Origin: Eledone cirrhosa
Taxonomy: Eukaryota
NCBI GenBank assembly: GCA_964016885.1
Contig: OZ024742.1
Span: forward strand, 293,508,001 to 293,572,000
Direction of reading: 5' to 3'
Length of the DNA: 64,000 nt
In this document: piece after piece, positions 2,560-52,222 of the stretch
How positions within the stretch are numbered: position 1 is the first letter of the stretch
Layout: each line of letters starts with the position of its first letter
The notes under the pieces: generated by a model
What the model was told of the DNA's origin: nothing
What the model saw: the letters and a program-made list of their open reading frames with translations, nothing else
The model's database searches: none
Position numbers and translations under genes: made by a program

Positions 2560-3540
2560 TCAATATAAGTATACCATTAATTATAGGTTAACTAAACTAA
2601 AGATAGTTAATATATTGATTTCTAAGGTGTAAATTACTTAGGTTTATAATATTTGAAGCAGAATTTTGAAGTTAAATAGTAGTAGAGTATTAATTATAGT
2701 ATAACTAAATTAAAATTATTAACGTTATGGTATCAATATTAGGAAATGAATTTAGTAATAGGGAAAAAAACAAATAAAGTATTACATCGGTAGTAGAATA
2801 TAAATTATAGGTTAACTAAATTAAAAATTATATATTAATTTCTATAGTATATGTTAATTAGGTATATAATAAATAAAACAGATATTGTATTTTATCAATA
2901 GTAGAATATAATTATATGTAAACAGAAATTAAAATTAATACATACACATATACATATACATACATATATATATACACATATATATACATACATACACATA
3001 CACATATATACATACATATACATATTTTTTCAAAAATTGCAAAGAATATATTAACTAGGTATACATCCAAAACCCATCCCGTTCTATGATTACATGACAC
3101 TCTGCAATCCGTCTGTATTAGGATACTAATTTTAAGCCAATTAAATTAAATTTTTAGGTTGACCAAATTTAAAACCAAATTATAAATATATTTCTAAAAT
3201 GTATATTAATTAGGTCTATAATACTAAAAATTATTTCTCTGTCATTGAATACACGATATTTTGTTATATTTTATCTGTAAAGGAATTTTAATAAAGGGTT
3301 AAATAAATTAAAATTAATCTATAAATTAAATTACTAAGTATATATTAGTAATATTTAAAGGTTTTTCACAATTTATGATTACACAATATTTTATATTCTC
3401 ATCTGTAGTAGAATTTTAATTAAATTAAATTTATAGGTTAACTAACATTTAAATTAAATTATATATTAATTTCTAAAATAATGTTATTAATTAGGTTTAT
3501 AATATTTAAATGTTTTTTTTAGTTTATGATTACACGATAT
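2560..3540. repeat. Degenerate AT-rich tandem repeat (roughly 110-140 bp units) in the 3' region of the Penelope-like element
   Basis: Recurring blocks ttataggttaactaa / tatattaatttcta / ttaattaggt.tataata / atgattacac at about 2580, 2690, 2800, 3150, 3300 and 3430. Confidence 0.55.
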
Positions 3541-4411
3541 AATTAATTCCTGTCGTTTATTTAATAGGATATCCTTAGATTTCATTATTTCAAATAGTTC
3601 TTGGGAACATAATCTACATTCATTTCTATTATTTTGATAAGGGGTGGCTCTTTTGAGCACACTCCAGGTCAAATCATATTCTATATTCTTATTTTTATAA
3701 CTATTGATTTTTTCTGCTAGAGATGTTGTATTAGCCAGTGCGGCATTTTTAAAACTATGTTTGTGGGTATTAAACCTTGTCTTAAAATTGTTAGAAGTAG
3801 CTCCTATATATGAGCAAATAGAATCTTTAGTTTTAACATTACATTTATAAACTATGTTGTTAACAAGACAATTTCCTTTTAATGGGCAGTTTGCTTTGTT
3901 TCTACAGTTACAACCTTTCGTTAATTCTGTATTTGAGGAGATATTATGGTTAGTTTGATGTATTGGTGGTATACTTATGGTTTTCTTACATTTATATGCA
4001 TTATAGGCACTTATATTTTGTTTTATGTTATTTGTTGTTGAGTATGAGAATTTAACTGTAGACCTATTTAAGATTTGATGGTATTTGTGGTTTGGCGGGA
4101 AGTTTTTCTCTAGGATATAAAAAAATTTTTTAGCAATATTATCCTTAATTTGTAAATTAAATGGAGCATTATACCAAGTAACCCGTCTATTACGGTTTCT
4201 ATGTTGTTTATTATTTTTATTATTTTTATAGGTTGTATCGTGATGTTTACTAGGAGGATTAATGTTAATGATCTCACCACAACCATTTTTAGTTATATTT
4301 GTAGATTTAGGTGTTTTATCTTTTTTATTAGGAGTTTTATTATTAATATTTATTAGAGTTGTATGATGAGTAGTTTTTTGAGAGTTACTATATTTTATAT
4401 TAGAAGATTTG

Positions 4412-4412: not shown

Positions 4413-5060
<648 letters not shown>

Positions 5061-7947
5061 TCATCATCATCATCATCATCATCAGGTTTAGCGTCCGTGT
5101 TCCACGCTTGCATGGGTTTGGACGGGGGTTTTCCCACTTGAGGCAAGAGTGGTTGTCTTGCTCGCATAGGACTGTCTGGCGGGTTTTCTACAGTTGGATG
5201 CCCTTCCTAACACCAACCACATTTACAGTGTGGGGCTGGGAGGTTTTTACCGTGTTGCCTACACGGCCACATTACAGCGTGGACTGTCTGGCGGGTTTTC
5301 TACAGCTGGATGCCCTTCCTAACACCAACCACATTTACAGTGTGGGGCTGGGAGGTTTTTACCGTGTTGCCTACACGGCCACATTTACAGCGTGGACTGT
5401 GTGTTTTTTGTCGTGACACCTACACGATCTCATTTGTTTCGGCCTGGATGTTGTGGGACCAACATAACTTTACATTGAAAGGGGCGGTGTGGGTGGGGTG
5501 GAGGTGGTGGGACGGGGGTGTGTTTTGATAGAGGTGCCTACTGACTGTAGTAGGTTTTTACTTTGTATTTAGGTAAGGCGGGTCTTCTCTATTACTGAGT
5601 ACCGCCAAAGGTCTCGGTCCAGTGACATTGTCTTGGAGTGGTGTAAGCGTGTGAGGTCGGAATTTATCAGCTCGTCCCATGTTTTTCTGGGTCTGCCTAC
5701 TCCGTGGCTACCGTCTATCTTTATTGCCCTGCACTTTGTTATACAGCTGTCGTCTTTCATGCGCATCACGTGACCGTACCAACGTAGCCTTCTCTCGAGT
5801 AAACAACATCTGATCCCTCTTATTTCTAATTTTTTCCTTAGTTCGTTTATGCTTTGCCGTTCACGTATATTACTATTGCACATCCAGCGGAGCATGCAAG
5901 CTTCGTTCCTCTCTAGTCTGCGTATATCCTCTGCACACAATGCCCAGGTCTCACTGCCATGCAGCATTGCTGTTCGTATGCAGGCATCGTATAACCTGCC
6001 TTTCATTTTTAGGGAGAACCCTCTAGCGGCTAATAGTGGTATAAGCTCTCTGAACTTTTTCCATCCAGTTCTGACTCTAGCTACTGTACTTTCAGAGCAC
6101 CCTCCCCCACTGCTGATTTTGTCACCCAGTTAACGGAAGCTGTCCACTATTTCTATAGAACCCTCTGCGCAGTTGAAGGAGCTAGTATTTTGTGGGCACT
6201 TGCTGCTACTTATTGCACCAGAGCACCGGCCACATGTAAAATCTATGTTCTTAGTTAGCTTACCTGTGATCCCACTACATCTTTTATGCACCCATACTTT
6301 GCATTTGGGACATAAAATGGAGTTTCTACCTACGCCTTTCCTACACACTGAGCATGGCCATTTCCCCGATGGGACCGCCGCCTTATTTTCTTTCCTACAA
6401 ACTAGAACTTTAGTCTTAGCCAGGTTAATTTTAAGGCCTTTTGATTCTAGGCCGTGCTTCCACGTTTGGAATTTCTTCTCTAGTTCGGTCATTGATTCAG
6501 CTATGAGCGTTAGATCATCTGCGTATAGGAGTTCCCATGGGCAGCCGGTCTTGAACTCCTCTGTTATAGCCTGAAGGGCAATAATAAATAGTAGGGGGCT
6601 AAGTACAGAGCCCTGATGGACACCAACTTTTACGCTAAACTCTTCACTATATTCGTTGTTAATTCTAACTTTACTGACTGTTTCTTTATACATGGCTTGT
6701 ATAGCTCTCACAAGCCATTCGTCAACACCTAGTTTTCTAAGAGACCACCAGATAATGGAACGGGGGACTCTGTCGAAGGCTTTCTCCAAGTCGACAAAAG
6801 CTAAGTATAGGGGTTTACTTTTAGCTAGGTACTTCTCCTGTAGTTGTCGTACAATGAAAAGAGCGTCTGTGGTACTTTTTCCTGACACAAACCCGAACTG
6901 CATTTCATCTAGATCAATTCTCTCTCTGATTAGTTGCGCTATTACTTTTTCCGTGACCTTCATGACCTGGTCGATTAATTTAATGCCTCTATAGTTACTC
7001 CTATCTAGGGCATCTCCTTTTCCCTTATAGCAGTTAACGATGATGCTGCTACGCCATTCCTTCGGAACAACCCCATTCTGTACGACTTGGTTAACTATCC
7101 GGGTGACCATGGTGTGTCCCACCGAACCAGATGCCTTCAGCATCTCAGCAACTATTTCCGAAGGCCCAGCCGCCTTACCCGTCTTCATATCTTTGATTGC
7201 CTTACTTATTATACTACCTTCAACTAACACTGCTGGTCCCTCTATTGGATCGATCTGGGGGAGACTGTCTTTCTCCCATTTGTTCTCCTCATTTAGAAGC
7301 CTTTCGTAGTGACACTTCCAAGCTACCTTCTTATCAGCGTCGGTGATGGCAAGTATGCCATCATCGTTAAGTACACACTTCTCCCCGACAATATCACGGT
7401 TTTCCTTGACACATTGCCTGGCAATCCTGAACACCTCACGTTTTTGGTCCTCACGTTGTAGAACATGCTTGAACTTTCTTTCCTCTGCTTCCCTTCTTGC
7501 GAAGTACACTTGTCTCCTAGCTTCCCTCCTGGCCACTTGATAGTCTTCTCTACTTCCCCCATCCCGCCATACTTTCCAAGCCTGCTTTTTGGCCTTAATT
7601 GACTCCTCCACCTTACTGTTCCACCACCATGTTACTCTCCTCCTACCTACAGGCCTGCTCCAGCCACAGACTTCGTCTGCCGCCGTCAGCAGGTTTACTC
7701 TCAGGAATTCCCACTGTTCCTCTATATTATACGACTCTAATTGCTCTTCCTTACTGTCGAAAGCGTCAAGTAATTTGCTTTGAAATTTATTTCTGGCTAT
7801 GGGGTCCTTTAGCTTCCATATTTTTCTCCTGAGGATAGTCCTCTTCCGCTGTCTAGTACGTCTCGTCCTGACTATGAGGTCGCTAATTATCAGTCTATGT
7901 TGGGAGGTGAATTCTTCATGGGGGTGGGATTTAGTGTTAACAACAGA
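5061..7947 (-). mobile_element. RTE-clade LINE copy A, 5'-truncated; RT + PHD finger; one nonsense codon at 6130-6132
   Basis: [55 protein letters not shown]; (GAT)n tail at 5061-5083; ORFs 6130.. and 5569.. share a frame. Confidence 0.95.
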
Positions 7948-8929: not shown

Positions 8930-8993
8930 CATCTATATATACACATACATACATCCATACATCTATATATATATATATATACACATACATACA
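7948..8993. repeat. Degenerate (TA)n/(CATA)n tract
   Basis: Directly visible. Confidence 0.95.
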
Positions 8994-11642
8994 TCCGCCG
9001 TCGTTGTCGTCATCATCATCATCATCGTCATTTCATTTTACGTCCACTTTTACCTGCTTGCAAGGGTGGAACAGGAACTGATTCTGGCTTGATTTCTACA
9101 GCTGGATGCCCTTCCTAACACCAACCTCATTTACAGTGAGTGCTGGGTGCTTTTTCGTGGCGCCTACACGTCCACTTTACAGTGTGGGCTGGGTGCTTTT
9201 ATGCCGTGGCGCCTACATGACCACCTTGCGGTGGTGGGTGTGGGGGCATATTGTTTATATGCTTCAGCATGGACCCATGGGAGGTCGGGTACTCTGTATT
9301 ACTGCGTGACGCCAGAAGTCACGGTCGTGTGTCATTGTCTTTGAGAGGTGTAATTGGGTAAGGTCGGCTTTTATCACCTCATCCCAGGTCATCTTGGGTC
9401 TCCCCACTCCGCGGTTTCCATCAACTTCTAGTGCTCTGCACCTTTTTATGCAGCTGTCATCCTTCATACGCATCACATGTCCATACCAGCGCAACCGCCT
9501 CTCCTGCACACAGCATTTGATTCCTCTTATGCTCAGTCTCTCTCTCAATTCATTTATGCTTTGTCGTTCACGTATATTACTGTTACACATCCATCGGAGC
9601 ATGCAGGCTTCGTTTCTCTCTAATCTACGTAAGTCTTCCACCTTCAGCGCCCAGGTCTCACTACCATGCAACATCGCTGTTCGGATACACGCATCATACA
9701 GTCTGCCTTTCATTCTGAGTGAGAAGCCTGTTGCAGCTAGCAGTGGTAGTAGTTCCCTAAACTTCTTCCATCCCGTTCTTACCCTAGTTATTGTACTTTC
9801 TGAACACCCACCTCCGTTGCTAATTCAGTCACCTAGGTAGCAGAAGCTGTCTACTGTTTCTACAGGGCCCTCCCAGAGATTGGTGGTACTTGTTTCCTGT
9901 GGCTGTTTGCTGCTTGCTGTTTCAGCACAGCTGCTGCATGTGAATCCTACATTCTTAATTAAGCTTCCTGAGATCCCGCTACATCTCTTGTGTACCCATT
10001 GTTTGCATTTGGGGCAGAGAATGGAGTTCCTACCTACACCTTTCCTACATACTGAGCAAGGCCATTTCCCTGAGGGGATCTGGGTTCTGTTTTCTCGTCT
10101 ACTTACAAGGACCTTAGTCTTTGTCATGTTGACTTTGAGACCCTTTCTTTCTAGTCCCTGCTTCCAGGTTTGGAATTTATTCTCTAGTTCTACCATAGAT
10201 TCAGCTATGAGTGCGAGGTCATCAGCATACAGGAGTTCCCATGGGCATCCCGTCTTAAACTCCTCCGTTATTGCCTGCAGGACTATGATGAACAGGAGAG
10301 GGCTAAGAACAGAGCCCTGGTGGACCCCAACCTGTACGCTAAATTCCTCGCTATACTCATTGCTAATCCTAACTTTGCTGACTGCTCCCCTATACATGGC
10401 TTGTACCGCTTTCACAAGCCATTCATCTACTCCTAGTTTTCTAAGAGCCCACCAGATTACAACACGTGGAACTCTGTCAAAGGCTTTCTCAAGGTCGACA
10501 AATGACAAGTAGAGTGGCTTACTTTTAGCTAGGTACTTTTCCTGTAATTGCCTCACAAGGAAGAGGGCATCAGTGGTGCCTCTTCCTGGTACAAACCCAA
10601 ATTGCATCTCGTCTATTTTCACCCGGTCCCTAATCAGCTGTGCTATAACTCTTTCTGTTACTTTCATGACCTGGTCCATCAACTTTATACCTCTATAGTT
10701 TCCTCTATCTAGTGCATCGCCTTTACCTTTGTAGCAGTTGACAATGATGCTACTGCACCAATCTTTTGGTATGGCCGCTTCTAGTATTACCTGGTTAACG
10801 ATACGTGTGGTTATAGTGTGACCTACAGACTCAGATGCCTTCAGCATCTCGGCAGCTATACCCGATGGACCGGTTGCCTTCCCCATCTTCATATCTTTGA
10901 TTGCCTTACTTACTACGCTGCTGCTGACTTGTACTGCTGGTCCCTCTATAGTGTCTACTTGGGGTAGGGTCTCTTCTTCCCATGCATTCTCCTCATTTAG
11001 TAATCTATCATAATGACTCTTCCATGCATCTTTCTTCTCAGCACTTGTGAGGGCAAGCTCACCTTTATCATTCCGGATACACTTCTCTTCAATGACATCA
11101 CAACTATCTCTGACACACTGCCTCGCAATCTTGAATACCTCCTGTTTCTGGTCCCCACGTTGTAAAACATGCTTGAATTTTCTATCCTCTGCTTCCCTCC
11201 TAGCTAAGTATACTTGTCGCCTAGCTTCCCTCTTGGTCTCTATGTAATGTACCCTGCTCCCCCTGTTCTTCCATTCTTTCCATGCCTGTCTCTTGGCCTT
11301 AACTGCTTCATCTACCTTATTGTTCCACCACCAAGTCACTCTCCTCCTGCTTGAGGTCTTACTCCAGCCACAGACCTCATCCGTCGCCTCTAGTAAATTA
11401 TTTTTTAGGAACTCCCAGTTCTCTTCTACGTTAAATGTCTCTATCTGTTCTTCTTTAGTGTCGTAGGCGTTGAGTAAAATATCTTTAAATCTGTTACTGG
11501 TTGAGGGGACTTTCAGCTTCCAGATCTTTCTTCTCCAGGTTGGCCTCTGTTTCCGGGTTCGTCTAGTTCTGACCGTGAGGTCGCTGACAACTAAGCTATG
11601 TTGGGATGTACATTCCTCACTAGGGAAGGCTTTTGTGTTTAT
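8994..11642 (-). mobile_element. RTE LINE copy B (second subfamily), 5'-truncated; one TGA at 9825-9827
   Basis: Same RT motifs and PHD finger but diverged from A; ORFs 9825.. and 9264.. are in frame; (GAT)n tail at about 8994-9030. Confidence 0.95.
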
Positions 11643-11721: not shown

Positions 11722-12212
11722 TCTCCCTGCGTACGAAAGGCCGGTTGTATGATGCCTGTGTGAGGAGCGCGATGCTGCATGGTAGTGAGACATGGGCAGC
11801 AACCGCAGAGGATATGCAACGGCTGGAGAGAAATGAGGCAAGCATGCTCCGTTGGATGTGCAATAAAAATGTGTGTGAACGACCCAGCATAAATGTGTTG
11901 AGAGAGAAACTGTGTCTGAGAGGGATAGAATGTAGTGTACGGGAGAGGAGACTGAGGTGGTATGGACATGTGATGCGCATGGAGGATGACCGATGGGTGA
12001 AGAAGTGCCAGGAAATGCCAGTTGAAGGAAGACGTGGTAGAGGTAGACCACGAAAAACATGGGCGGAGGTGGTGAGAACAGACCTCAGATCATTGAAGCT
12101 CACGGTGGAGATGATGAGGGACCGCGACGAGTGGAGAGATGCTGTGCTGAATAAGACCCGTCCCACCCTTGCAAGCAGGGAAAAGCGGACGTAAAATGAT
12201 GATGATGATGAT
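11722..12212 (+). mobile_element. RTE LINE 3' fragment B2 (third subfamily, essentially no 3' UTR)
   Basis: [24 protein letters not shown]...GRPRKTW...[13 protein letters not shown] followed at once by (GAT)n. Confidence 0.92.
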
Positions 12213-12238
12213 ATATATACATACATACATATATATAC

Positions 12239-13440: not shown

Positions 13441-13499
13441 ATATATACATGATGGCTGCCCCCTCGTTATCGAGTATGGCCATTGCACAAGAAAAAAAA

Positions 13500-14206
<707 letters not shown>

Positions 14207-17200
14207 TCATCATCATCATCATCATCAACGTTTAACGTCCGTGTTCCACGCTTGCATGGGTTTGGACGGGGGTAGTCCCACTTGAGGCAAGAGTGATTGT
14301 CTTGCTCGCATAGGACTGTCTGGCAGGTTTTCTACAGTTGGATGCCCTTCCTAACACCAACCACATTTACAGTGTGGGTCTGGGAGGTTTTTACTGTGTT
14401 GCCTACACGGCCACATTACAGCGTGGACTGTGTGTTTTTTTTGTCGTGACACCTACACGATCTCATTTGTTTCGGCCTGGATGGCGCGGCACCAACATAA
14501 CTTTACATAGGACGGGGTGGTGTGGATGGGTGGGGGTGGTGGCGGGACGGGGTGTATTTTGTTAGAGATGCCTACTGGCAAGGCGGGTCTTCTCTGTTAC
14601 TGAGTACCGCCAAAGGCCTCGGTCCAGTGACATTGTCTTGGAGAGGTGTAAGTGTGTGAGGTCGGAGTTTATCAGCTCGTCCCAGGTTTTTCTAGGTCTG
14701 CCTATTCCGTGGCTACCGTCTATCTTTATTGCCCTGCACTTTGTTATACAGCTATCGTCTTTCATGCGCATCACGTGTCCATACCAACGTAGCCTTCTCT
14801 CGAGTAAACAACATCTGATCCCTCTTATCTCTAATTTTTCCCTTAGTTCGTTTATGCTTTGCCGTTCACGTATATTACTGTTACACATCCAGCGGAGCAT
14901 GCAAGCTTCGTTCCTCTCTAGTCTGCGTATATCCTCTGCACACAATGCCCAGGTCTCACTGCCATGCAACATTGCTGTTCGTATGCAGGCATCGTACAAC
15001 CTGCCTTTCATTTTTAGGGAGAACCCTTTAGCAGCTAATAGTGGTATAAGTTCTCTGAACTTTTTCCAACCAGTTCTGACTCTAGCTACAGTACTTTCAG
15101 AGCACCCTCCCCCACTGCTGATTTTATCGCCCAGGTAACGGAAGCTGTCCACTATTTCTATAGAACCCTCTGCGCAATTGAAAGAGCTAGTATTTTGTGG
15201 GCACTTGCTGCTACTTATTGCACCAGAACACCGGCCACATGTAAAATCTATGTTCTTAGTTAGCTTACCTGTGATCCCACTACATCTTTTATGCACCCAT
15301 ACTTTGCATTTAGGACATAAAATGGAGTTTCTACCTACGCCTTTCCTACACACCGAGCACGACCATTTCCCAGAAGGGACCGCCGCCTTGTTTTCTTTCC
15401 TACAAACTAGAACTTTGGTCTTAGCCAGGTTAATTTTAAGTCCTTTTGACTCTAGGCCGTGCTTCCATGTTTGGAATTTCTTCTCTAGCTCGGCCATTGA
15501 TTCCGCTATGAGTGTCAGGTCGTCTGCGTATAGGAGTTCCCATGGGCAGCCTGTCTTGAACTCCTCTGTTATAGCCTGAAGGGCAATAATAAATAGTAGG
15601 GGGCTGAGAACAGAGCCCTGATGGACGCCAACTTTTACGCTAAACTCTTCACTATATTCGTTGTTAATTCTAACCTTGCTGACTGTTTCTTTATACATGG
15701 CTTGTATGGCCCTCACAAGCCATTCGTCAACGCCTAGTTTTCTAAGAGCCCACCAGATAATGGAGCGGGGGACTCTGTCGAAGGCTTTCTCCAGGTCGAC
15801 AAAAGCTAAGTAGAGGGGTTTACCTTTAGCTAGGAACTTCTCCTGTAGTTGTCGTACTATGAAAAGAGCGTCTGTGGTACTTTTTCCTGACACAAACCCG
15901 AACTGCATTTCATCTAGGTCAATTCTCTCTCTGATTAGTTGCGCTATTACTTTTTCCGTGACCTTCATGACCTGGTCGATTAATTTAATGCCTCTATAGT
16001 TACTCCTATCTAGGGCGTCTCCTTTACCCTTATAACAGTTAACGATGATGCTGCTATGCCAGTCCTTCGGAACAACCCCATTCTGTACGACTTGGTTAAC
16101 TATGCGGGTGACCATGGTGTGTCCCACCGTGCCAGATGCCTTCAGCATCTCAGCAACTATTTCCGAAGGCCCAGCCGCCTTACCTGTCTTCATATCCTTG
16201 ATTGCCTTACTTATTATACTCCCCTCGACTAACACTGCTGGTCCCTCTATTGGGTCGACATGGGGGAGACTGTCTTTCTCCCATTTATTCTCCTCATTTA
16301 GTAGCCTTTCATAGTGACACTTCCAAGCTACCTTCTTATCAGTGTCGGTGATGGCAAGTATGCCATCATCGTTAAGTACACACTTCTCCCCGACAATATC
16401 ACGGTTTTCCTTGACGCATTGCCTAGCAATCCTGAACACCTCACGTTTTTGGTCATCGCGTTGTAGGACATGCTTGAACTTTCTTTCCTCAGCTTACCTT
16501 CTTGCTAAGTACACTTCTCTCCTAGCTTCCCTCCTGGCCACTTGATAGTCTACTCTACTTCCCCCATCCCGCCATACTTTCCAAGCCTGCTTTTTGGCCT
16601 TAATTGACCCCTCCACCTTACTGTTCCACCACCATGTTACTCTCCTCCTGCCTACAGGCCTGCTCCAGCCACAGACTTCGTCTGTCGCCAACAGCAGGTT
16701 TGCTTTCAGAAATTCCCACTGTCCCTCTATATTGTCCGACTCTAAATGTTCTTCCTTACTGTCGAAAGCATCAAGTAATATGTTTTGAAATTTATTTTTG
16801 GCTGTGGGGTCCTTTAGCTTCCATATTTTTCTCCTGAGGATAGTCCTCTTCTGCTGTCGAGTACGTCTCGTCCTGACTATGAGGTCGCTAATTATCAGTC
16901 TATGTTGGGAGGTGCATTCTTCATGGGGGAGGGATTTAGTGTTTACAACAGACACTCTGTCACGTCTTCTGGTAAGGATATAATCTACCTGGCTTGTGTG
17001 TTCCCCGGATCTATAGGTGATCAGGTGATTGTCACGTTTTTTGAAGTTAGTGTTACAGATAGTTAGGTTATTTGCATCACAGAATTCCAGGATTCTGGAG
17101 CCTTCCTCATTTCTAGTACCAAACCCATAGCCTCCATGGATTTCGTCGTAGCCGTCACAATGTTGCCCAACGTGACCATTTAGGTCGCCTGCAATAATTA

Positions 17201-17465
17201 TATAGTCACTGTCAGATATTTGGGAGGTAGTGAGCATCAGTGTCTCATAGAATCTGTCTTTTATAGTGCCGGGCAGTCCGGATTGGGGTGCGTACGCAGA
17301 TATTACTGTCACCGTAGTTCTATTGAGGACAAGTCGTATTTTAATTATTCTGTCGTTCACTCTATTTACGTCTATTATCTTATCTGCCCACTTTTCTGCT
17401 ACCATGATTCCTACTCCACCCAGCCCATCGTCGTTTCCCACCCAGAAAAGCTTATAACATCGTTA
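14207..17465 (-). mobile_element. RTE LINE copy C, near-complete (most of APE + RT + PHD); one TAA at 16494-16496
   Basis: [29 protein letters not shown] (APE) followed in frame by RT; (GAT)n tail; very similar to A. Confidence 0.96.

Positions 17466-17788: not shown

Positions 17789-17857
<69 letters not shown>
17466..17857. repeat. Degenerate (TA)n/(CATA)n tract
   Basis: Directly visible. Confidence 0.95.
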
Positions 17858-17858
<1 letters not shown>

Positions 17859-20800
17859 CATCATCATCATCGTTTAACGTCCATCTTCCACACTTGCATG
17901 GGTTTGGACGGAAATTTTCCCACTTGAGGCAAGATTGGTTGACTTGCTCGTATAGGACTGTCTGGCGGGTTTTCTATGGCTGGATGCCCTTCCTAATACC
18001 AACCACGTTTACAGTCTGGACTGGGAGGTTTTTATCGTGTTACCTACACGACCTCATTTGTTGTGACACCTACACGACCTCATTTGTTTCGGCCTGGATG
18101 TGGTGTTACCAACATAACTTTACATTGAAAGGGATGGTGTGGATGGGGTGGGGGTAGTGGGACGGGGATGTATTTTGTTAGAATTGCCTACTGACTGTAG
18201 GTTTTGCTTTGTACTTAGGCAAGGCGGGTCTTCTGTATTACTGTGTAGCGCCAAAGATCTTGGTCCTGTGACATTGTCTTGGAGAGGTGTAAGTGTGTCA
18301 GGTCGGAATTTATCAAGTCGTCCCAGGTTTTTCTGGGTCTGCCTACTCCGTGTCTACCGTCTATTTTTATCGCCCTGCACCTTTTTATACAGCTGTCGTC
18401 TTTCATGCGCATCACGTGACCGTACCAACGTAGTCTTCTCTCAAGTAAACAACATCTGATCCCTCTTATTCCTAATTTCTCCCTGAGTTCGTTTATGCTT
18501 TGCCATTCACGTATATTACTATTACACATCTAGCAGAGCATGCAAGCTTCGTTCCTCTCCAGTCTGCGTATATCCTCTGCACACAATGCCCAAGTCTCAC
18601 TGCCATGTAACATTGCTGTTCGTATGCAGGCATCATACCTTTCATTTTTAGAGAGAACCCAATAGTGGTATAAGCTCACTGAACTTTTTCCATCCCGTTC
18701 TGACTCTAGCTACTGTACTTTCAGAGCACCCTCCACCACTGCTGATTTAGTCACCCAGGTAATGGAAGGTGTCCACTATTTCTATAGAACCATCTGCACA
18801 ATGGAATGAGCTAGTATTCTGTGGGCACTTGCTGCTACTTATTGCACCTGAGCACCGGCCACATATAAAGTCTACGTTCTTAGTTAGCTTACCTGTGATC
18901 CCACTACATCTTTTATGCACCCATACTTTGCATTTTGGACATAAAATGGAGTTTCTGCCTACTCCTTTCCTACACACTGAGCATGGCCATTTCCCAGATG
19001 GGACCGGTGCCCTATTTTCCTTCCTACAAACTAGAAATTTAGTCTTAGACAGGTTAATTTTAAGGCCTTTTGATTCTAGGCCATGCTTCCATGTTTAGAA
19101 TTTCTTCTGTAGTTCAGCCATTGATTCAGCTATGAGCGTTAGATCATCTGCGTATAGGAGTTCCCATGAGCAGCCGGTCCTGAACTCCTCTGTTATAGCC
19201 TGAAGGGCAATAATAAATAGTAGGGGGCTAAGGACGGAGCCCTGATGAACACCAACTTTTACGCTAAACTCTTCACTATATTCGTTGTTAATTCTAACTT
19301 GCTGACTGTTTCTTTATACATGCCTTGTATAGCTCTCACAAGCCATTCATCAACACCTAGTTTTCTAAGAGCACACCAGATAATCGAGCGGGGTACTCTG
19401 TCAAAGGCTTTCTCCAAGTCAACAAAAGCTAAGTATAGGGGTTTACTTTTAGCTAGGTACTTCTCCTGTAGTTGTCGTACAATGAAAAAAGCGTCTGTGG
19501 TACTTTTACCTGACACAAACCCGAACTGCATTTCATCTAGATCAATTCGCTCTCTGAGTAGTTGCGCTATTACTTTTTATGTGACCTTCATGACCTGGTC
19601 GATTAATTTAATGCCTCTATAGTTACCCCTATCTAGGGCATCTCCTTTACTCTTGTAGCAGCTAATGATGATGCTGCTGCGCCAGTCCTTTGGAACGACC
19701 CCATTCTGTATGATTTGGTTTACTATCTGTGTGACCATAGTGTGTACCACCGTTCCAGATGCTTTCAGCATTTCAGCAACTATTTCCTAAGGCCCGGCCG
19801 CCTTACCCGTCTTCATATCTTTGATTGTTTTACTTATTATACTACCTTCAACTTGCACTGCTGGTCCCTCTATTGGATCGATGTGGGGGAGACTGTCTTT
19901 CTCCCATTTATTCTCCTCATTTAGTAGCCTTTCGTAGTGACACTTCCAAGCCTACCTTCTTATCAACGTCAGTGATGGCAAGTACACCATCATCATTCAA
20001 GACACACTTCTTCCCGACAATATCACAGTTTTCCTCGACACATTGCCTAGCAATCTTGAACACCTCACGTTTTTGGTCCTCACGTTGTAGAACATGCTTG
20101 AACTTTCTTTCCTCTGCTTCCCTTCTTGCGAAGTACACTTGTCTCCTAGCTTCCCTCCTGGCCACTTGATAGTGTTCTCTACTTCCCCCATCCCGCCATA
20201 CTTTTCAAGCCTGCTTTTTGGCCTTAATTGACTCCTCCACCTTACTGTTCCACCACCACGTTACTCTCCTCCTGCCTATAGGCCTGCTCCAGCCACAGAC
20301 TTCATCTGCCGCCTTCAGCAGGTTAGCTTTCAGGAATTCCCACTGTTCCTCTATATTGTACAACTAATTGCTCTTCCTTACTGTCAAAAGCATCAAGTAA
20401 TATGCTTTTAAATTTAAATTTATTACTGGCTGTGGGGTCCTTTAGCTTCCATGTTTTTCTCCTGCGGATAGTCCTCCTCTGTTGTCGAGTACGTCGTACG
20501 TTTTGTCCTGACTATGAGGTCACTGACTATGAGTCTATGTTGGGAGGTGCATTCTTCATGGGGGAGGAATTTAGTGTTTACAACAGACACTCTATCACGT
20601 CTTCTGGTAAGGATATAATCTATCTGACTGGCGTGTTCCCCTGATCTATAGGTGATCAAGTGATTGTCTAGTTTTTTGAAGTTAGTGTTACAAATAGTTA
20701 GGTTATTTGCGTCACAGAATTCCAGGATTCTGGAGCCTTCCTCATTTCTAGTACCAAACCCATAGCCTCCATGGATTTCGTTGTAGCCGTCACAATGTTG

Positions 20801-22221
20801 TCCAATGTGACCATTTAAGTCGCCAGCAATAATTATGTAGTCACTGTCGGTTATTTGGGAGGTAGTGAGCATCAATGTCTCATAGAATCTGTCTTTTATA
20901 GCGCCAGGCAGTCCGGATTGTGGTGCGTACGCAGATATTGCTGTCACAGTAGTTCAATTTAGGACAAGTCTTATTTTAATTATTCTGTCGTTCACTCTAT
21001 TTACATCTATTATCTTATCTACCCATTTATCTGCTAACATGATTCCTACCCCACCCAGCCCATTGTCATTTCCCACCCAGAAAAGCTTATAGCATTGTTT
21101 TTTACCCACAATGAATCTAGCAGACCCACTCCTTCACCGGGTCTCTTGGATACAGCAAACATCAACCTCCTTACGTTCAAGCATTTCTACAACCTCGTTA
21201 GAGCGACATTTTAAGGTGCCTACATTCATGGTACCAACTCTGAAGTTTTGGATTGCATTTGGTGGGTGGGAACGGTGTGGCGCGGGAAGGGGTGAAGGGA
21301 ATGGCGTTGGGGTTATGTTGGCCATCCGCGGCCGAAATAAAGAGGAGGAGTCCTTGCCTTTTCGTCCAGCAGCATTAGGTGAATTTGTCTTTATCTTTGG
21401 CATTGTCACCGAGTGTCCAGATTTTTCAGACGCTCCAGAATTCCTTAGTCCATCCATCATATCGAAAGGCAACCAGGGAAGTGATAGCATAGGCCGCTGA
21501 CTTATGATTGGTCCAGATAATAATGGTGGCGAGTGGGGGCAATTGGGATGGGTATGGGGTAGTTAGCGAGAAGGTTTAAATAAAATCCTCCAATTTTGAG
21601 CATAATTGGACAAGCATATACAGTAATAAGCGAATAATGGGATTTTAAAATACAAGAAGACTATTTAGAACAACCAGACAGAATTATAGAATAGCATTGA
21701 GAAAGAGCAAAGATTTGGATTCTGGGTGATGATGTGGCTATATGAATGAATGGACCAGGAAGATGGAGAGACAAGAAAAAAATGGCATTTTACATTACAT
21801 TTCACAGGAGAGCGAGCAAGTCTGACCATTAATAAGAGTTGACAAAATCTGAGATTCGTACCTCGTAACAGGTTTATTTTATATTTGGTGAGAGAAGGGA
21901 GTGATTGAGAGAGAGGGAACCAGTAGGTGCATATACAATATTGGGGGGGGGGGGGGGTAGGAGAGGCAAGGGAGGCCATTTCATAAATCCTAGAATTTTC
22001 GGCCAAAATTAAACACACGAGATTGTTATTTTAGAAAACAAACGAGAAGGATTAAAACATCAGACGTAGTTAGCGAGAAGGTTTAAATAAAATCCTCGAA
22101 TTTTGAGCATAATTGGACAAGCATATACAGTAATAAGCGAATAATGGGATTTTAAAATACAAGAAGATTATTTAGAACAACCAGACAGAATTATAGAATA
22201 GCATTGAGAAAGAGCAAAGAT
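17858..22221 (-). mobile_element. RTE LINE copy D, apparently full-length but decayed (single ORF, probable 5' UTR to about 22221)
   Basis: N-terminus RVGTMNVGTL...DVCCIQETR of APE at about 21130-21240, then APE/RT/PHD with many stops and indels; (GAT)n tail; ends at a (TA)n tract. 5' boundary is inferred. Confidence 0.9.
21559..22221. repeat. 156-bp direct repeat (21559-21714 / 22066-22221), period 507 bp
   Basis: gtagttagcgagaagg...gaaagagcaaagat present twice, with about 2 mismatches. Confidence 0.93.
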
Positions 22222-23772: not shown

Positions 23773-23775
<3 letters not shown>

Positions 23776-25028
23776 CCTGGCTAAGACTAAAGTTCTAGTT
23801 TGTAGGAAAGAAAATAAGGCGGCGGTCCCTTCTGGGAAATGGTCGTGCTCGGTGTGTAGGAAAGGCGTAGGTAGAAACTCCATTTTATGTCCTAAATGCA
23901 AAGTATGGGTGCATAAAAGATGTAGTGGGATCACAGGTAAGCTAACTAACAACATAGATTTTACATGTGGCCGGTGCTCTGGTGCAATAAGTAGCAGCAA
24001 GTGCCCACAAGATACTAGCTCTTTCAATTGCGCAGAGGGTTCTATAGAAATAGTGGACAGTTTCCGTTACCTGGGTGGTAAAATCAGCAGTGGGGGAGGG
24101 GTGCTCTGAAAGTACAGTAGCTAGAGTCAGAACTGGTTGCAAAAAGTTCAGAGAGCTTATACCACTATTAGCTGCTAAAGGGTTCTCCCTAAAAATGAAA
24201 GGCAGGTTGTACGATGCCTGCATACGAACAGAAATGTTGCATGGCAGTGAGACCTGGGCATTGTGTGCAGAGGATATACGCAGACTAGAGAGGAACGAAG
24301 CTTGCATGCTCCGCTGGATGTGTAACAGTAATATACGTGAACGGCAAAGCATAAACGAACTAAGGAAAAAATTAGAAATAAGAGGGATCAGATGTTTACT
24401 CGAGAGAAGGCTACGTTGGTATGGACACGTGATGCGCATGAAAGTCGATAGCTGTATAACAAAGTGCAGGGCAATAAAGATAGACGGTAGCCACGGAATA
24501 GGCAGACCTAGAAAAACCTGGGACGAGCTGATAAACTCCGACCTCACACACTTACACCTCTCCAAGACAATGTCACTGGACCGAGACCTTTGGCGGTACT
24601 CAGTAACAGAGAAGACCCGCCTTACCTAAATACATAGTAAAACCTACTACAGCCAGTAGGCATCTCTAACAAAATACACCCCCGTCCCACCACCACCACC
24701 CCCACCCCATCCACACCACCCCGTTCTATGTAAAGTTATGTTGGTGCCGCGCCATCGAGGCCGAAACAAATGAGATCGTGTAGGTGTCACGACAAAAAAA
24801 CACACAGTCCACGCTGTAATGTGGCCGTGTAGGCAACACGGTAAAAACCTCCCAGACCCACACTGTAAATGTGGTTGGTGTTAGGAAGGGCATCCAGCTG
24901 TAGAAAACCTGCCAGACAGTCCTATGCAAGCAAGACAATCACTCTTGCCTCAAGTGGGACTACCCCCGTGCAAACCCATGCAAGCGTGGAACACGGACGT
25001 TAAACGTTGATGATGATGATGATGATGA
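23773..25028 (+). mobile_element. RTE LINE copy E (A/C subfamily), 5'-truncated, frameshift in a G-run near 24100
   Basis: [15 protein letters not shown]...MKGRLYD...EKTRLT*, 3' UTR as in C, (GAT)n tail, (TA)n on both sides. Confidence 0.94.
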
Positions 25029-25401
25029 TATATATATATATATATATACTACATCAAAAGAAAGCTGAAAATATATACATCACAATGACTGGTATATACG
25101 TATGCTTGGATATCTACAATAACCAACATAACACAAAAACTGACCGACAGACACAGTTATAAACATACACACACACATATATATATATACATATATGTAC
25201 ACATACATATATACACATACATATATACATATATACACATACATATATACACGTATATATACACACATGCACATATATATATATATATACACACATATAT
25301 ACATATATACATATACACACATATATACACATACATATATACACACATATATATATATACACACACACAGACATATATATACATATATATACACACCCAT
25401 C

Positions 25402-25847: not shown

Positions 25848-26143
25848 TATTTTTACCAGTCATAGCCAAACTGTGGCCCATTTAGCTTTCTGAATGGCAC
25901 GCCTAATTTCAAATTTGCCTTGAAGACATGGCATAAACCTCCAACTATTGCTGAAGAACACAACACACAATGCAGCTTAGGAATCGAACCCATGACAATA
26001 TTGTAAGCCAAAAAAATTAACTCACAACGGAAAGAAACAAATGGAAAAACAATGATGGAAAAAGTTGATAAAAATACAAAATTAAAATTACACCAAAGAA
26101 TAATAAAATGATGAAAAGTTAAAAAAAAAAAACTCCCACATAC

Positions 26144-26347
26144 CATAATGGCACCAACTTTCAGTAGGTTGTTAAGTTGAATCCGTAGTTGGTCACAAAG
26201 GTCCAATATCCGCTCACGGTTCTCATGAGAAGTGTAGGCAGAGTCAGTGAAATCCTGGCTACTTTCAACTATTAAGTCTAAGGCACTGTTGAGTTTCTCC
26301 TGAGTACTCGGACCTACCATTGTTATCCGAATTAGTTCACATAAATC
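26144..26347 (-). CDS. CTNNAL1: Alpha-catulin-like gene, internal exon (68 codons, phase 0/0)
   Basis: tttcag|DLCELIRITM...SQDFTDSAYTSHENRERILDLCDQLR...GAIM|gtatgt; DFTDSAYTSHE.RERIL is characteristic of alpha-catulin. Confidence 0.92.
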
Positions 26348-26859
26348 CTGAAATAAATAAAAAATATTTATATATATATATATATATATAATGTGTAAAA
26401 ACAAGCTAAAAACCTTCATACATATAAAATATATTTTTAAAATAACATCAAAGATGAACAGGAAATTCAAATCCTGTTGAAGATAATGTTGCTTCTGATC
26501 CATTCAGGATCCTGAAATAAAGGGTCAATATAGAGATGTGGATTAATGGAATTTTTGGTGTTGGATGAGATGCCTTGTGATGTTTGTTCTGCCTTACTGC
26601 ACTGTTGCCACTGTGTCTAGTTGAGTGGCAGACTTAATCCATCACCCTGTTTAACACCCCCATCTGGCTCGTGGATGTCTTTATAGAGATTCAACATTGT
26701 TGCAAGCATTAAGGCCAGGTTTGTGGTCTGAGAATACTTTCTTCCCTCTCTCCATCACACCAGTCTTGATAGTGCCCTAGAAAAGGTTATGAGCACTGTC
26801 CTATCATGCTCTACCAATTCTGCCAATCCACCGCCCTGGAGTCACCATTAATAATTTTT

Positions 26860-32016: not shown

Positions 32017-32337
32017 ATGGCTTAGTGGTTAGAGCATTGGCCTTGCAATCGAAAGGTTGTGAGTTCAATTCTCAGACTGGGTGCTGTGTTGTTTCCTTGG
32101 GCAAGACACTTTATTTCACATTGCTCCAGTTTACTCAGCTGTAGAAATGAGATGATAGGGAATGGGGTCCCTATCATTCCACTGCAAAGTGGTCGTGGAG
32201 GTGCCACGGCAAAAAAGCACCCAGCACTCACTGTAAATGAGGTTGGTGTTAGGAAGGGCATCCAGCTGTAGAAATCAAGCCAGAATCAGTTCCCGTCCCA
32301 CCCTTGCAAGCAGGGAAAAGTGGACGTAAAATGGTGA
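32017..32337 (+). mobile_element. tRNA-derived CORE-like SINE with RTE-type tail
   Basis: A box tggcttagtgg, B box gagttcaattc, CORE-like ccttgggcaagacacttt...cagtttactcagctgtagaaatg, tail shared with LINEs B/B2. Confidence 0.88.
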
Positions 32338-37423: not shown

Positions 37424-37745
37424 ACATGGCTTAGTGGTTAGAGCATTAGCATTGCAATCGAAAGGTTGTGAGTTCAATTCTCATACTGGGTGATGTGTTG
37501 TTTCCTTGAGCAAGACACTTTATTTCACATTGCTCCAGTTTACTCAGCTGTAGAAATGAGATGATAGGGACTAGGGTCCCTATCATTCCACTGCAAAGTG
37601 GTCGTGGAGGTGCCACGGCAAAAAAGCACCCAGCACTCACTGTAAATGAGGTTGGTGTTAGGAAGGGCATCCAGCTGTAGAAATCAAGCCAGAATCAGTT
37701 TCCGTCCCACCCTTGCAAGCAGGGAAAAGGCGGACGTAAAATGAA

Positions 37746-37781
<36 letters not shown>
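37424..37781 (+). mobile_element. CORE-like SINE inserted into the P2 RT with 7-bp TSD atgaggc
   Basis: TSD at 37417-37423 / 37782-37788; removal restores YYNEALHKSG; long (GAT)n tail. Confidence 0.92.
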
Positions 37782-39494: not shown

Positions 39495-39538
<44 letters not shown>

Positions 39539-39706
39539 GTAAATGAGGTTGGTGTTAGGAAGGGCATCCAGCTGTAGAAATCAAGCCAAATCAGTTCCTG
39601 TATGAGCAAGGCATGGTCAGCCGACCAGACACTGCCCACAACAGGACAACCCATCTAACCCATGCTAGCGTGGAAGAACGGACGTAAAACAGTGATGATG
39701 ATGATG
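39539..39706 (+). mobile_element. SINE/LINE 3' fragment with a third tail variant (longer copy at 47248-47481)
   Basis: gaggttggtgttaggaagggcatccagctgtagaaatc...cccatgctagcgtggaagaacggacgtaaaacagtgatgat. Confidence 0.8.
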
Positions 39707-39812
39707 ATATATATATATATATAAAAGTTAAACAAGGTTCAATGAATACATCAAAGAATGAGTTTTACAATAGATTGGAAGCACTCAACAAGAAGGTTTT
39801 CCAGAGTTATTA

Positions 39813-41708: not shown

Positions 41709-43012
41709 CAGGGTGTGGACGATATTTGTTCGCAACTTTCAACTACTAATTTTATGCAAATTTTTTTTACTTCCGTTGTCACTCTTGTCTTCACAAAAAC
41801 AATGACTATATTTCCATTATTTATTTTCAGAATAATTGATTATAAATAAGTTTGAACCTCCAAATTTGTGGAAGAGACACGGAGTTCTTCTTGGGATCCA
41901 TGCCGGGAGGACAAATAAGGAAATTTCAGACTTTCTCAGCGTCAGCAGAAGAATGGTGGAAAAGGTCAGAAAGGAATTGGAAGATTCAGGATTCGTCTAC
42001 GAAGCAACATCAGAGAGGAAAACACATGATCGACGATCTGACACCTTCAGAACACTCGAGTTTGTCGCTGAAGTTCAGGATATCATCAACAATGAACCTA
42101 GCAAGTCGATGCGTGCCATTGCAAGGGAGAAAGGCGTGGATGAAAAGCTCATTAGGCTGGTGGTACATGAAGACATTCGCTATGTTTCGTACAAGATGAG
42201 GAAAGGACAATTTCTGTCAAAAGCGATGCAAGAAAAGTGAGTGAAGCACACAAAGAAGCTGATCAACGAATTGAAACACTCACTGGAGCCAGACATGCTG
42301 TGGTTTTTCTCCGACGAGAAAAACTTCTGCCAAGACCAGAAGATCAACTCCCAGAACAACAGGTGGTTCACTGTCTCATCCAAAGCCGTGCCCAGAGTCA
42401 TGCAGATAAAGTTTCCAGCAACAACATTGGTCTTAGGTGTCGTCAGCAGTCAAGGTGACGTCATGCCACCGCACTTCTTCCCTGAGGGCCTCAAGCTGAA
42501 CACCGATGGCTATATCTGCCCTCTGAGTGAGGTAGTAAAGCCCTGGATCGACCAGGTAGCTGCAGGTAGGCCGTACGTGTGGCAGCAAGTCTCAGCGCCC
42601 TGCCATACCAGCCGAAAGACCCAAGCCTGGCTATCAGAGAACTTCGTCGACCACACTTCAGCTGACATCTGGCCTCCCAGCTCGCCTGACTGCAACCTCC
42701 TCGATTTCTTTGTGTGGGGCGCAGTGGAATGAGACACCAACAGATCTAGCTGCAATATGAAAGACGATCTGAAGGCCAGGATCACAAGTGCCTTTAGGGG
42801 TCTAAGTCGGGAGACAGTGACGAAGGCCTGTAGCCGGTTCCGAGGCCGCCTTGAGGTCGTCATCAAAGCAAATGGCGGGTTTATCGAGTGAGATCGAAAG
42901 AACACGTCATGAAGACAAACTGACCCCAGTTTGATAAATATATCTTAAAAAATAAAACTACTGTGTTATTTTTTCCTAGACAGTAATCTTGAGAACAAAT
43001 ATCGTCCGTACC

Positions 43013-43928: not shown

Positions 43929-43963
<35 letters not shown>

Positions 43964-43973
43964 TATATATATA

Positions 43974-44865
43974 TCATCATTTTACGTCCGCTTTTCTCTG
44001 CTTGCAAGGGTTGGATGGGTCCTATTCAGCACAGCATCTCTCCACTTGTCACGGTCCTTCGTCATCTCCTCGGTGAGTTTCAGCGAACTGAGGACTGCTC
44101 TCACCACCTCCGCCCATTTTTTCCTGGTCTACCTCTTCTGCGTCTTCCTTCTACTTGGATTTCTTGGCACTTCTTTACCTAGCGGTCATCCTCCATGCGC
44201 ATCACATGTCCATACCATCTCAGCCTTCTCTCCTGCACACCACAACTTATCCCTCTTATACCCAGTTTCTTTCTCAACTCGTCTATGCTAGGTCGTTCAC
44301 GCACATTGGCATTGCACATCCAATGGAGCATACTTGCTTCATTTCTCTCCAGCCATCGCATATCTTCTACAGTTGTTGCCCATGTCTCACTACCATGCAG
44401 CATCGTGTATCTCACACAGGCATCATATAACCGTCCTTTCGTACGCAGTACGCAAGGAGAAACCCTTCTTAGTCAACAGAGGAAGCAGCTCCCTAAACTT
44501 CTTCTAACCCATCCTTATTCTAGATACTATGGCCTCGGAACACACCCCCTCCCATGCTAATCTGATCACCTAGGTACCGGAAGCTATCAACCACTTCCAT
44601 AGAACCCACCTGCATTGGAAAAATGTGTCTATCACTGCGATTACTACTGCCAACTTCCCCTGTACATCTACTGCGTACGTAGTTTTCCCTACCTGTTAGT
44701 TTGCCTGCTATCCCACTACATCTCTTGTGTACCCAAGATCTGCATTGCATGCATTTTATGGAATTTATGCCAGTTCCTTTCCTACATATCGAACATGGCC
44801 ATTTCCCCGATGGAATCAGAGTATTGTCCTCTCTTTTAATTATCAACACTTTTGTTTTAGCTATG
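43974..44865 (-). mobile_element. RTE LINE copy F (B2-like subfamily), 5'-truncated and decayed
   Basis: IAKTKVL..SGKWPCSICRKG...[30 protein letters not shown]; B2-type terminus. Confidence 0.9.
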
Positions 44866-45030
44866 TATATGGGATAACAAGTTATTGTTATAGGCAATCC
44901 AGTTAGAGGTTGTGAGTACTCTGTGTTGTGGATAGTTTTAACGTATGGCTTTGTTTGACTCAACAAGATGTTTCTATAGTTAGGTAGCGAGTTCTTGAGA
45001 ATTCCTATGCAGGTTATTCTTGGAGTAATA

Positions 45031-47221: not shown

Positions 47222-49191
47222 TATATTACATATACATATATATATACACGGCAAAAAAGCACCCAGCCCACACTGTGAAGTGGACGTGTAGGCGCCACGG
47301 AAAAAGCACCTACCACTCACTGTAAATGAGGTTGGTGTTAGGAAGGGCATCCAGCTGTAGAAATCAAGCCAAAATCAGTTCCTGTATGAGCAAGGCATGG
47401 TCAGCCGACCAGACACTGCCCACAACAGGACAACCCGTCTAACCCATGCTAGCATGGAAGAACGGACGTAAAACGGTGATGATACACACACACACCATAT
47501 ATATATATATACGCAAGTATTCATACACATACATATGTATATATGTGTGTATAAAAGATATCTCTATATATACGTATCTTTCATACACACACATTTATAC
47601 ACGCACACATATATATATATTCATACACACACAAACACATCCTGTACCAGCACCATCAATAGTGACAAATAAATTGCAAAATCAAATATATTGATAAAGG
47701 TTGTTTGTATTATTTGCATGATACTATATTATAGATGAATAATTGAATTCTTCTGATTAGGCAGGTCTCAGATTTACAATGGAGATGAAATGAAATCAGA
47801 ATACCTATTATGTTTAATAAAATGGGAAAAAAAAATTGATCATATCCACCCTTCTGGGAACCTATATCATCCTTCTCAATACTTGTAAATAATTAAAGCA
47901 GCCAATATTTTACTAACATCTATAAACTTTCCTTCGTAAATCATCTTTAAACCTTCGCCTACGGTCAACTGTTACACCTCTGGTCTCTTTAACTACTACT
48001 TCTACAATAACGCTGGTTGCATCAAAAGACCCATTACTTACTATCCCCTCCCTCTATCTATCCCCCCTCTCTATCTCTCTCTGACATACACACACACAAC
48101 TAATAGCTATTGTTATATCTTCTTTCAAGCTTCTTATGCTCTGCTATGTTACTTGCCTTTAACTACATCAATCTAAAACTTACTCCCAAGCTATAAATAT
48201 AGCCTTAGCAATTATCTAAGACACATATTTCCCAACTAACACCGATACAATATTAGATTTAATGAAGTTGTTGACACTGTCATGAATAATGACCACTGGT
48301 GAAACCTCACTGACCAGTGTTGAGTGGTCAACAAATTGTATGTTGTTATAACCCTTTACAAAAATCGAAGACAAAGATGAAATGAACAACTAGTAAATTT
48401 TAACATATTTATTTGACTTAAAATCAATATCATTAATTTTATCTATTATCTCCAGTAGGAAATTAGGAGCTGTAGTACAAGGGCCAATGCTACCATTAAA
48501 GCCAAGTAAGTAGCCATCTAGGGTGCAGATCTCACACAGACACATTACTGAATCTTAAGGGATCACAGTAATATACAAATTTATATAACTAACTTAAATA
48601 TATAATTTCCTGTTTTACAACCTGTCTAACCTATGTTATCGTGGAAAATAGACATTAAACGATGATGATGATAAATAAATCTCAAAACGTATTTGCTGCA
48701 TAACATTGTTGAAATATCCAAAGTTGTGTTGGGGTGGAATGAGCAGGGTGGTTTGAAAATCAGTAATTTTTCTAGGTTGTTTCTGTTGAGTGTTTTTAAA
48801 ACCAGTATTAGTCGTTTAGTTTACATATTGAAACCCCAACCCATCCTATTTATTTTATAACATATGAGATTTCTAGTAATGTACTTTTTTTGTCATGTAT
48901 AATGTTTTTTAATGTCTAAAGAAAATTTATTGTCGCAGGAATACTAGCACTTGAAATAAAATTTCACTGGAGATAGATTAGCAAAATTTAAGAGTGGGGG
49001 GGATAAGAGAGGGGGGGGGGGGGGGTTCAAAAAATCTGAAACAGGGGGAGGGGGGGGATTATTCTAGACCAGAGAGTAAATACATAAATACTTTTATTCT
49101 CAAGAGTTATATATAATTTCTTTTAAATTTATTCTACTGATTTATAAAAATGACCATCAATTTATTAATGATTAGTAATTAATAATTATTA

Positions 49192-51170: not shown

Positions 51171-52222
51171 TCAAGACAGACTTTTGTAATTTACATTCTA
51201 TTCTTGGTTCCTAGTTGGATGCCCTTGCTAATGCCAACCACATTTACAGTGTGTACTGGGTGTTTTTTGTCATGACACCTACATGACCACTTTACAGTGT
51301 GGACTGGGCACTTTTTGTTGTGTCACCCACACGACCACTTTACAGTTGTAACATTTATGAGACAGTATTTTATGACAGAATGCCCTTCCTCACTTGAACC
51401 CTTGATCATTATAACAGTTACCTGTTATAACGATCATACAGAGTTATGGTGTTCCTATTCCAGAAAATGGTAAGCAGCAGCAGTTTCTAACCGACCTTAA
51501 GCTACAAACTGAAGGGAAGGGGTGGTAGTTAATCAAATCAACTCTATCACACGAATGGCACTTTATTTTATCACCAACACTTCCAGAAGAATGAAAATCA
51601 AAGTTGACCTCACTGAGATCTGGATTTAGAATGTAAAGAGGCATAACCAAATACTGCAAGACAATCACAATATCACACTGCTACCACCACCATCATCACC
51701 ATTATTATCACTACCATCACCACCACCACCCTCACCATCACTACTACCATCATTATCACCACCATCATGATCAACACCATCAATCACCACCACCTTCATT
51801 ATCATGATGATGATCATCATCATCATCACCAAAATGAAGTCTGTAAATAATGGGAAGTTATTTGATTATGGTAGTTAATTGTTGGATTTCTTTAAATGGT
51901 TGCTAATGTCATTAACTTCAACTCTGGCTTTTCTCCAAACATTTTAATAACATTTGCCAATGTTGGAAGTCATGAACATGGAGTTAACCTGGATCTAATT
52001 GTTATCCTTTCTATTTACTTGGAATCTTTCACAACCTTTACACTGGTTACTTCTAATCACAAATTTGTAGGTTATTTATAACATCCAGTCTTATTGTAGA
52101 TCTAGTCAGAACTTTCCTTTATAAACGACATAGTTTTACACCAGTGGTTCTCAAATTTATTTCATCACAAAAAAAAACATTGTAGAACCTGAAAATCCCA
52201 CACCATACTGCTCTTGGTTTAA

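Follow-up and report, generated by a model that had tools for sequence, protein, structure and literature searches.

The window analyzed here, a 64,000-nucleotide stretch of the Eledone cirrhosa genome (assembly GCA_964016885.1, contig OZ024742.1, positions 293,508,001 to 293,572,000), holds a cluster of long interspersed element (LINE) copies interspersed with long TA-type microsatellites. Judged by its sequence, a C4HC3 insert encoded by these copies is a complete PHD finger, located between motifs 6 and 7 of the reverse transcriptase (RT) of an RTE-type LINE with a single open reading frame (ORF). Comparative data indicate that the finger is under purifying selection and that it marks a whole clade of animal RTE-type LINEs across several phyla rather than being a local oddity. 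We tentatively propose that, in target-primed reverse transcription (TPRT), it grips the DNA of the target upstream of the nick.

A zinc finger within the polymerase

The finger is best followed in copy C, where it is encoded on the minus strand with its first cysteine at 15359 and its last at 15228, in frame within the ORF at 14562-16493 (minus strand). The C4HC3 core (15228..15359, minus strand) corresponds to residues 379-422 of protein P0001. Together with variable linkers, it forms an insert of about 62-64 amino acids relative to PHD-less RTE relatives (15204..15395, minus strand; borders approximate). On the same strand lie the catalytic YADD of RT motif 5 (15519..15530), the KTK of motif 6 just ahead of the insert (15414..15422) and, past it, the YLG of motif 7 (15129..15137). 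A tryptophan two residues before the histidine ligand (15297..15299, minus strand) falls at the position of Pygo W366 and is present in 214 of 215 distinct fingers.

The Pfam PHD model (PF00628; curated cut-off 24 bits) was matched over its full length, positions 1-47 of 47, by a 90-amino-acid piece (E = 1.5e-7, 31.8 bits), with scores of 24.3 bits in P0001 and 28.1 bits in an intact ORF. A C1 or RING finger was rejected because the corresponding Pfam matches were partial and below cut-off, whereas the PHD model matched at full length. The spacing from YADD to YLG is 125-136 residues in PHD-bearing elements versus 64-76 in nearly all other RTEs, and the linker of close PHD-less relatives is about 62 residues shorter. 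The insert occupies the same RT loop, between motifs 6 and 7, as the '6a' loop of R2 (PMC10499050, PMC11601368). The initial annotation of this DNA, which had recognized a C4HC3 PHD pattern between KTK and YLG at a place where other RTEs have a short linker, is borne out in all three respects. Folding of the isolated finger from its single sequence gave a predicted local distance difference test (pLDDT) score of 37.6; in an alignment-based model the PHD region was confident, with a short hairpin and a helix. All matches in fold searches with a larger model were polymerases or polymerase-like folds.

Intact 1084-amino-acid ORFs and their Pfam domains reveal a single-ORF architecture in which an APE endonuclease is followed by the RT, and several of 20 long copies encode the same intact endonuclease-RT-PHD protein. 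The element had been described as lacking ORF1, and this holds: no ATG-initiated ORF of more than 114 amino acids was found on either strand in the 900 nucleotides upstream of four long copies, for which the 5′ end is approximate. A repair of the copy C frame, suggested in the initial annotation, proved unnecessary because intact genomic copies supply the ORF; the Pfam check suggested alongside it did identify the PHD. The 3′ tail is (GAT)n in 46 of 48 distinct loci. The 5′ untranslated regions (UTRs) of two long PHD-bearing copies, L033 and L036, appear to include a repeat unit of about 0.6 kb, inside which lies a (CA)n(TA)n run.

The family is abundant. A first look at the 3.0 Gb genome returned 55,341 candidates for the 90-amino-acid region (an approximate count), and the 150 that were scored were all 100% identical to it. 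Of the 30 best Pfam PHD loci in the genome, half (15) are PHD-bearing RTE elements, so their abundance inflates automatic counts of PHD genes. Separately, many equal-scoring 138-base PHD matches lie on one contig (G000:C25, ~19.3-23.7 Mb) and represent a different repeated PHD family.

Constraint and phylogenetic range

Each of the eight zinc ligands is conserved in 99-100% of 117 aligned proteins, and the finger is therefore no chance pattern; its asparagine and tryptophan are invariant in the same set. Column conservation averages 0.68 across the PHD and 0.70 across RT motifs 2-5, as opposed to 0.43 and 0.33 in the linkers. When subfamilies C and B are compared, nonsynonymous over synonymous divergence (dN/dS) is 0.124/1.48 for the PHD and 0.402/1.38 for the linkers, in keeping with the constraint that the initial annotation had proposed to look for. 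The younger pair C and D fails to separate PHD from linkers, with values of 0.028/0.28 and 0.049/0.45, respectively. The PHD ratio is about 0.08-0.10; silent sites are saturated when F is compared. The finger had also been described as kept in three diverged subfamilies, which stands, with a cysteine loss as a trait of subfamily F, which does not: L035, an F-type copy elsewhere in the genome, retains all eight ligands, and the loss in copy F is decay of a single copy.

A search with the RT-PHD region gave 159 matches, of which the best 120 were examined. The finger is present in 116; the remaining 4 lack the catalytic motif as an anchor and were excluded from the alignment. A second search used only the RT core and was blind to the finger: among the best 120 of its 3,809 matches, 92 have full fingers, 17 have variant, frameshifted or mis-joined ones, 8 end early or are deleted, 3 lack the motif and none has an intact short linker. 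The few named matches place the finger in Octopus bimaculoides, Mercenaria, Hydractinia, two Branchiostoma species and the catfish Neoarius. Two members filed under metagenome-assembled bacteria (P0003 and P0154) were not accepted as bacterial, being most likely animal host DNA in the bins, and none of 13 pattern matches in viral contigs was confirmed as the finger.

Among 150 representatives from clustering at 50%, 126 were placeable by linker type. At RT identities of at least 50%, 10 of these have the PHD, 8 are unclear and 1 is short through an internal deletion across the finger; at 45-50%, 5 have the PHD, 4 are short and 1 is unclear; below 45%, 1 has the PHD, 77 are short and 19 are unclear. 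A tree was built from 66 RT cores with the insert removed, leaving out unclear rows, partial cores and the deleted copy, and keeping only three rows of one near-identical family. All 36 PHD-bearing rows and 6 short-linker rows unite at 99/93 support. PHD-bearing elements group with short-linker elements, apart from the CR1-type row, in this tree, among whose rows neither RTE-1 nor BovB is present as a named reference. We assigned the labels RTE, BovB-like and CR1-type ourselves, on the basis of motifs. A single origin of the finger is compatible with the tree test (approximately unbiased test, p-AU 0.545), as is one gain plus one loss. Six PHD-less rows (P0245, P0248, P0284, P0286, P0290 and P0400) lie inside or sister to the PHD-bearing clade; they may reflect one loss of the finger and are the best natural controls for it.

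Insertion into microsatellites

With a motif-spacing pattern we found PHD-less RTE-type copies in the same genome. They include a young family (L151-L190) with a YADD-YLG spacing of 69 residues, ORFs of up to ~1240 amino acids and, instead of the PHD, three C-terminal C2H2-type fingers; it may be related to RTE-2_OV. Members of this family have microsatellites inside their own UTRs. Within 12 bases past the 3′ end, a TA/ATGT-type microsatellite was found in 26 of 46 PHD-bearing, 29 of 32 PHD-less and 0 of 29 CR1-type copies, all of them top search matches rather than a random draw, against a background frequency of 2-4%. In assembling these sets, two PHD-bearing duplicates were dropped and two PHD-bearing copies had no recognized tail; 8 of 40 PHD-less copies likewise had no recognized tail, and 1 of 30 CR1-type copies was dropped. 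A 30-base rule gave counts of 26, 25 and 0. Because part of the ATGT run could be the PHD-less element's own tail, 5′ truncation junctions were scored too, and these lie in a microsatellite in 10 of 18 PHD-bearing and 11 of 17 PHD-less copies.

The flanks of PHD-bearing copies showed no GC or CpG enrichment relative to those of PHD-less RTE or CR1-type copies (p 0.18-0.63; 37, 21 and 28 flanks, of which 1, 1 and 2 are island-like), although such composition is a weak proxy for promoter targeting. Six PHD-coding copies in 64 kb compare with 1.2 expected from the genome mean (Poisson p 0.0014); about 65 windows of the genome, given the approximate candidate count, would reach this density by chance alone. 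PHD-less RTE-type 3′ ends occur within the cluster itself, near 13474 and 12856 (both minus strand). The initial annotation had offered the finger as an explanation of the local pile-up and had envisaged an insertion bias between families with and without it. Neither idea is supported by these data: the PHD-less family enters the same microsatellites at least as often, and flank composition shows no difference. The most fitting reading of the cluster is that RTE elements nest in microsatellites whether or not they carry the finger.

Possible roles of the finger

The best profile matches in the PDB are Pygo1/2 (E = 6.7e-6), followed by KDM5B, PHF23, ALFIN-like 3, Set3, BPTF and PHF2, all known as readers of histone H3 methylated at lysine 4 (H3K4me). 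According to PMC2726290, the dimethyl-lysine 4 cage of Pygo consists of W366, Y341, D352, V350 and A356, with I357 and E360 also required; Y341, V350, A356, I357 and W366 touch H3K4me2 and T3, and binding is lost in an E360 mutant. Across the 215 distinct fingers, the positions of Y341, V350, A356, I357 and W366 are matched in 196 (aromatic or His), 210 (V/T), 215 (S/A/C), 214 (I/V/L) and 214 (W), respectively. The positions of D352 and E360 are acidic in only 2 of 117 aligned proteins each, and an acid follows the third cysteine in only 6 of 215 fingers. Judged by sequence, the negatively charged H3-binding face of Pygo type is not matched: the net charge is positive in 215 of 215, with a median of +6 and a range of +1 to +10. 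The 15 PHDs outside RTE elements among the genome's top 30 Pfam loci, called cellular from sequence alone and in some cases cut by introns, have charges of -9 to +6 (median -2); all 15 carry an acid after the third cysteine, and 1 has tryptophan two residues before the histidine. The finger thus appears to present a reader-type cage on a surface whose charge does not suit the H3 tail (PMC10124903). A complex of the PHD with unmethylated H3 tail, predicted without an alignment (score 0.04; mark 0.34), was used neither for nor against any role.

Because the acidic histone contacts are missing and the finger is always basic, we favor DNA gripping over H3K4me reading, while holding it as a tentative choice that could well prove wrong. 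The finger would fold as a separate module hung from the intact RT palm, and by analogy with R2 6a it would face upstream target DNA. Its conserved lysine and arginine residues would add affinity for bare or nucleosomal DNA, and the tryptophan cage might stack on a base or weakly bind methyl-lysine. The choice of TA/ATGT microsatellites is independent of the finger and likely due to the endonuclease together with pairing of the RNA repeat tail; PMC6007223 proposes that RTE repeat tails act in site choice. DNA-binding cross-brace fingers are known, one of them in a transposase (PMC5861402). Several points weigh against DNA gripping. A 62-residue module could swing far from the site of a six-residue loop, and many retroelement proteins are basic overall. 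PHD-bearing and PHD-less families are alike in target class, so the finger shows no visible sequence specificity, unlike R2 6a. The best-matching solved PHDs are known as H3K4me readers, and the conserved Pygo contact positions are what a histone reader would keep.

These last points carry the strongest competitor, in which the finger would be a Pygopus-type H3K4me reader, possibly bivalent with the cage on the tail and the basic face on nucleosomal DNA, that biases integration toward a chromatin state. The conserved cage, the near-invariant tryptophan that non-RTE PHDs of the same genome mostly lack, the profile matches and atlas neighbors bearing PHD and PHD_Pygo all speak for it, and Pygo itself has no R2 pocket (PMC2726290). 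The lost acids, the uniformly positive charge, the unremarkable flank composition and a target class shared with the PHD-less family make it the rather unlikely option of the two. Somewhat less probable again is its fullest form, an old animal RTE clade with a methyl-lysine reader in the polymerase, whose bivalent nucleosome contact (cage on H3K4me, basic face on DNA) would let chromatin state gate TPRT. If true, gated TPRT would give LINEs an equivalent of the integrases that bear chromodomains, and would make of the loop between motifs 6 and 7 a place where targeting modules can generally be plugged into the RTs of elements without long terminal repeats (non-LTR RTs). We consider it improbable that the ligand of the finger is a host protein or the RNA of the element itself, and that the finger so replaces part of the missing ORF1 in assembly, template holding or processivity. 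The basic surface and the lack of a sizeable ORF1 would suit such a role; other LINE PHDs lie in ORF1 or where a single ORF begins (PMC4120745), and the PHD of PHF6 binds RNA and DNA. However, PHD-less RTE relatives are also single-ORF elements, the L151-L190 family being young and abundant, and the R2 counterpart loop faces DNA, not RNA. That the insert is a functionless tolerated passenger or a local artefact is very unlikely. It would fit the six PHD-less sequences inside or beside the clade, where the finger was perhaps lost once, but is contradicted by column conservation close to that of the RT motifs, by the low dN/dS and by retention of the finger down to 45% RT identity.

Relation to known elements

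RTE-1, BovB and octopus RTE-2_OV resemble the PHD-bearing element in having a single ORF with APE endonuclease and RT, a short-repeat 3′ tail and frequent 5′ truncation. The PHD-bearing element differs in its ~62 extra residues between motifs 6 and 7 and in having no terminal C2H2 finger; RTE-2_OV is a 1109-amino-acid endonuclease, RT and C2H2 protein (PMC9115989). In R2, the 6a loop is short and basic; it touches the upstream target DNA, recognizes a specific motif and has been called a feature of R2 alone among non-LTR RTs (PMC10499050, PMC11601368). In contrast, the loop described here holds a predicted folded zinc finger, and the element is of APE type and has no fixed site. Compared with the Pygopus PHD, its best PDB profile match with five matched H3-contact positions (PMC2726290), the finger has a loop shorter by two residues, no acid at D352 or E360, a short loop 2 and a strongly basic character. 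The cysteine-rich domain at the C terminus of piggyBac is likewise a cross-brace zinc finger in a transposition protein and binds DNA, but it has C5HC2 ligands, is terminal and binds the transposon's own ends (PMC5861402).

PHDs in other retroelements make the finger less novel than initially thought. As described in PMC8557442, Chlamys Penelope-like elements also have a PHD inserted inside a retroelement RT; they belong to another retroelement class, the PHD lies either in the endonuclease or between RT2a and RT3, and the insertions are those of five Chlamydomonas families, whereas the RTE finger spans one clade over several animal phyla. The PHDs of CR1/L2 LINEs, proposed as targeting aids and without functional study at the time of that paper, sit in ORF1 or at the ORF N terminus rather than inside the RT (PMC4120745). 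The full-text literature searched contained no description of a PHD or zinc finger in an RTE RT, although an earlier note in Repbase, Dfam or subscription journals is possible. The available parts of PMC9115989 (leaving aside one occurrence of 'PHD'), PMC3849965, PMC10294476, PMC13282606, PMC6007223 and PMC13580325 describe no such finger. Pfam already annotates it on many public proteins. What appears to be new is an RTE-type LINE variant whose RT bears a PHD finger at loop 6a; a PHD within the RT was known before from Chlamys Penelope-like elements.

How APE-endonuclease LINEs engage chromatin at their target is poorly known. Here the PHD lies in the catalytic protein itself, and PHD-less relatives as controls together with many intact copies allow direct tests by deletion or point change. 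A loop described as R2-specific can evidently accommodate an entire domain, predicted to be folded, and this knowledge helps in both the understanding and the engineering of insertion tools based on LINEs.

Copies and other features of the window

A six-frame scan located six PHD-coding copies, with first cysteines at 6354, 10058, 15359, 18983, 23846 and 44795. Copy C (14206..17465, minus strand; PHD at 15359) is an RTE-type LINE truncated at its 5′ end inside the endonuclease, with one in-frame stop between endonuclease and RT; its 3′ UTR terminates in (GAT)n, and TA-type microsatellite flanks it on both sides. Copy A (5052..7947, minus strand; PHD at 6354) belongs to the C-type subfamily, and copy D (17843..21099, minus strand; PHD at 18983) is 89% identical to C and may run further 5′ than the match. 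Copy B (8990..11641, minus strand, 3′ border approximate; PHD at 10058) represents a diverged subfamily with ~75% DNA identity to C over the ORF. Copy E (23773..25037, plus strand; PHD at 23846) is truncated just before motif 6. The decayed copy F (43960..44870, minus strand, borders approximate; PHD at 44795), of a third subfamily, has lost the seventh ligand; sequence matching also located, at 11722..12219 (plus strand), the 3′ part of an F-type copy whose truncation lies downstream of the PHD.

Short elements with the 3′ UTR or tail of the PHD-bearing family lie at 47253-47483, 39538-39720, 32182-32284 and 37591-37771 (plus strand) and at 51213-51334 and 13689-13751 (minus strand); they may be truncated copies or related short interspersed elements (SINEs). 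At 3490-4350 (minus strand), a C-terminal piece adjoining a TA tract has no Pfam match at E 0.01; by eye, it looks like a Penelope-type GIY-YIG endonuclease. An exon-like open frame at 26141-26362 (minus strand), also without a Pfam match, appears to resemble alpha-catulin, and the LINE cluster may lie inside an intron of an alpha-catulin-like gene. An open frame at 42241-42732 (plus strand) looks by eye like a fragment of a Tc1/mariner-type transposase.
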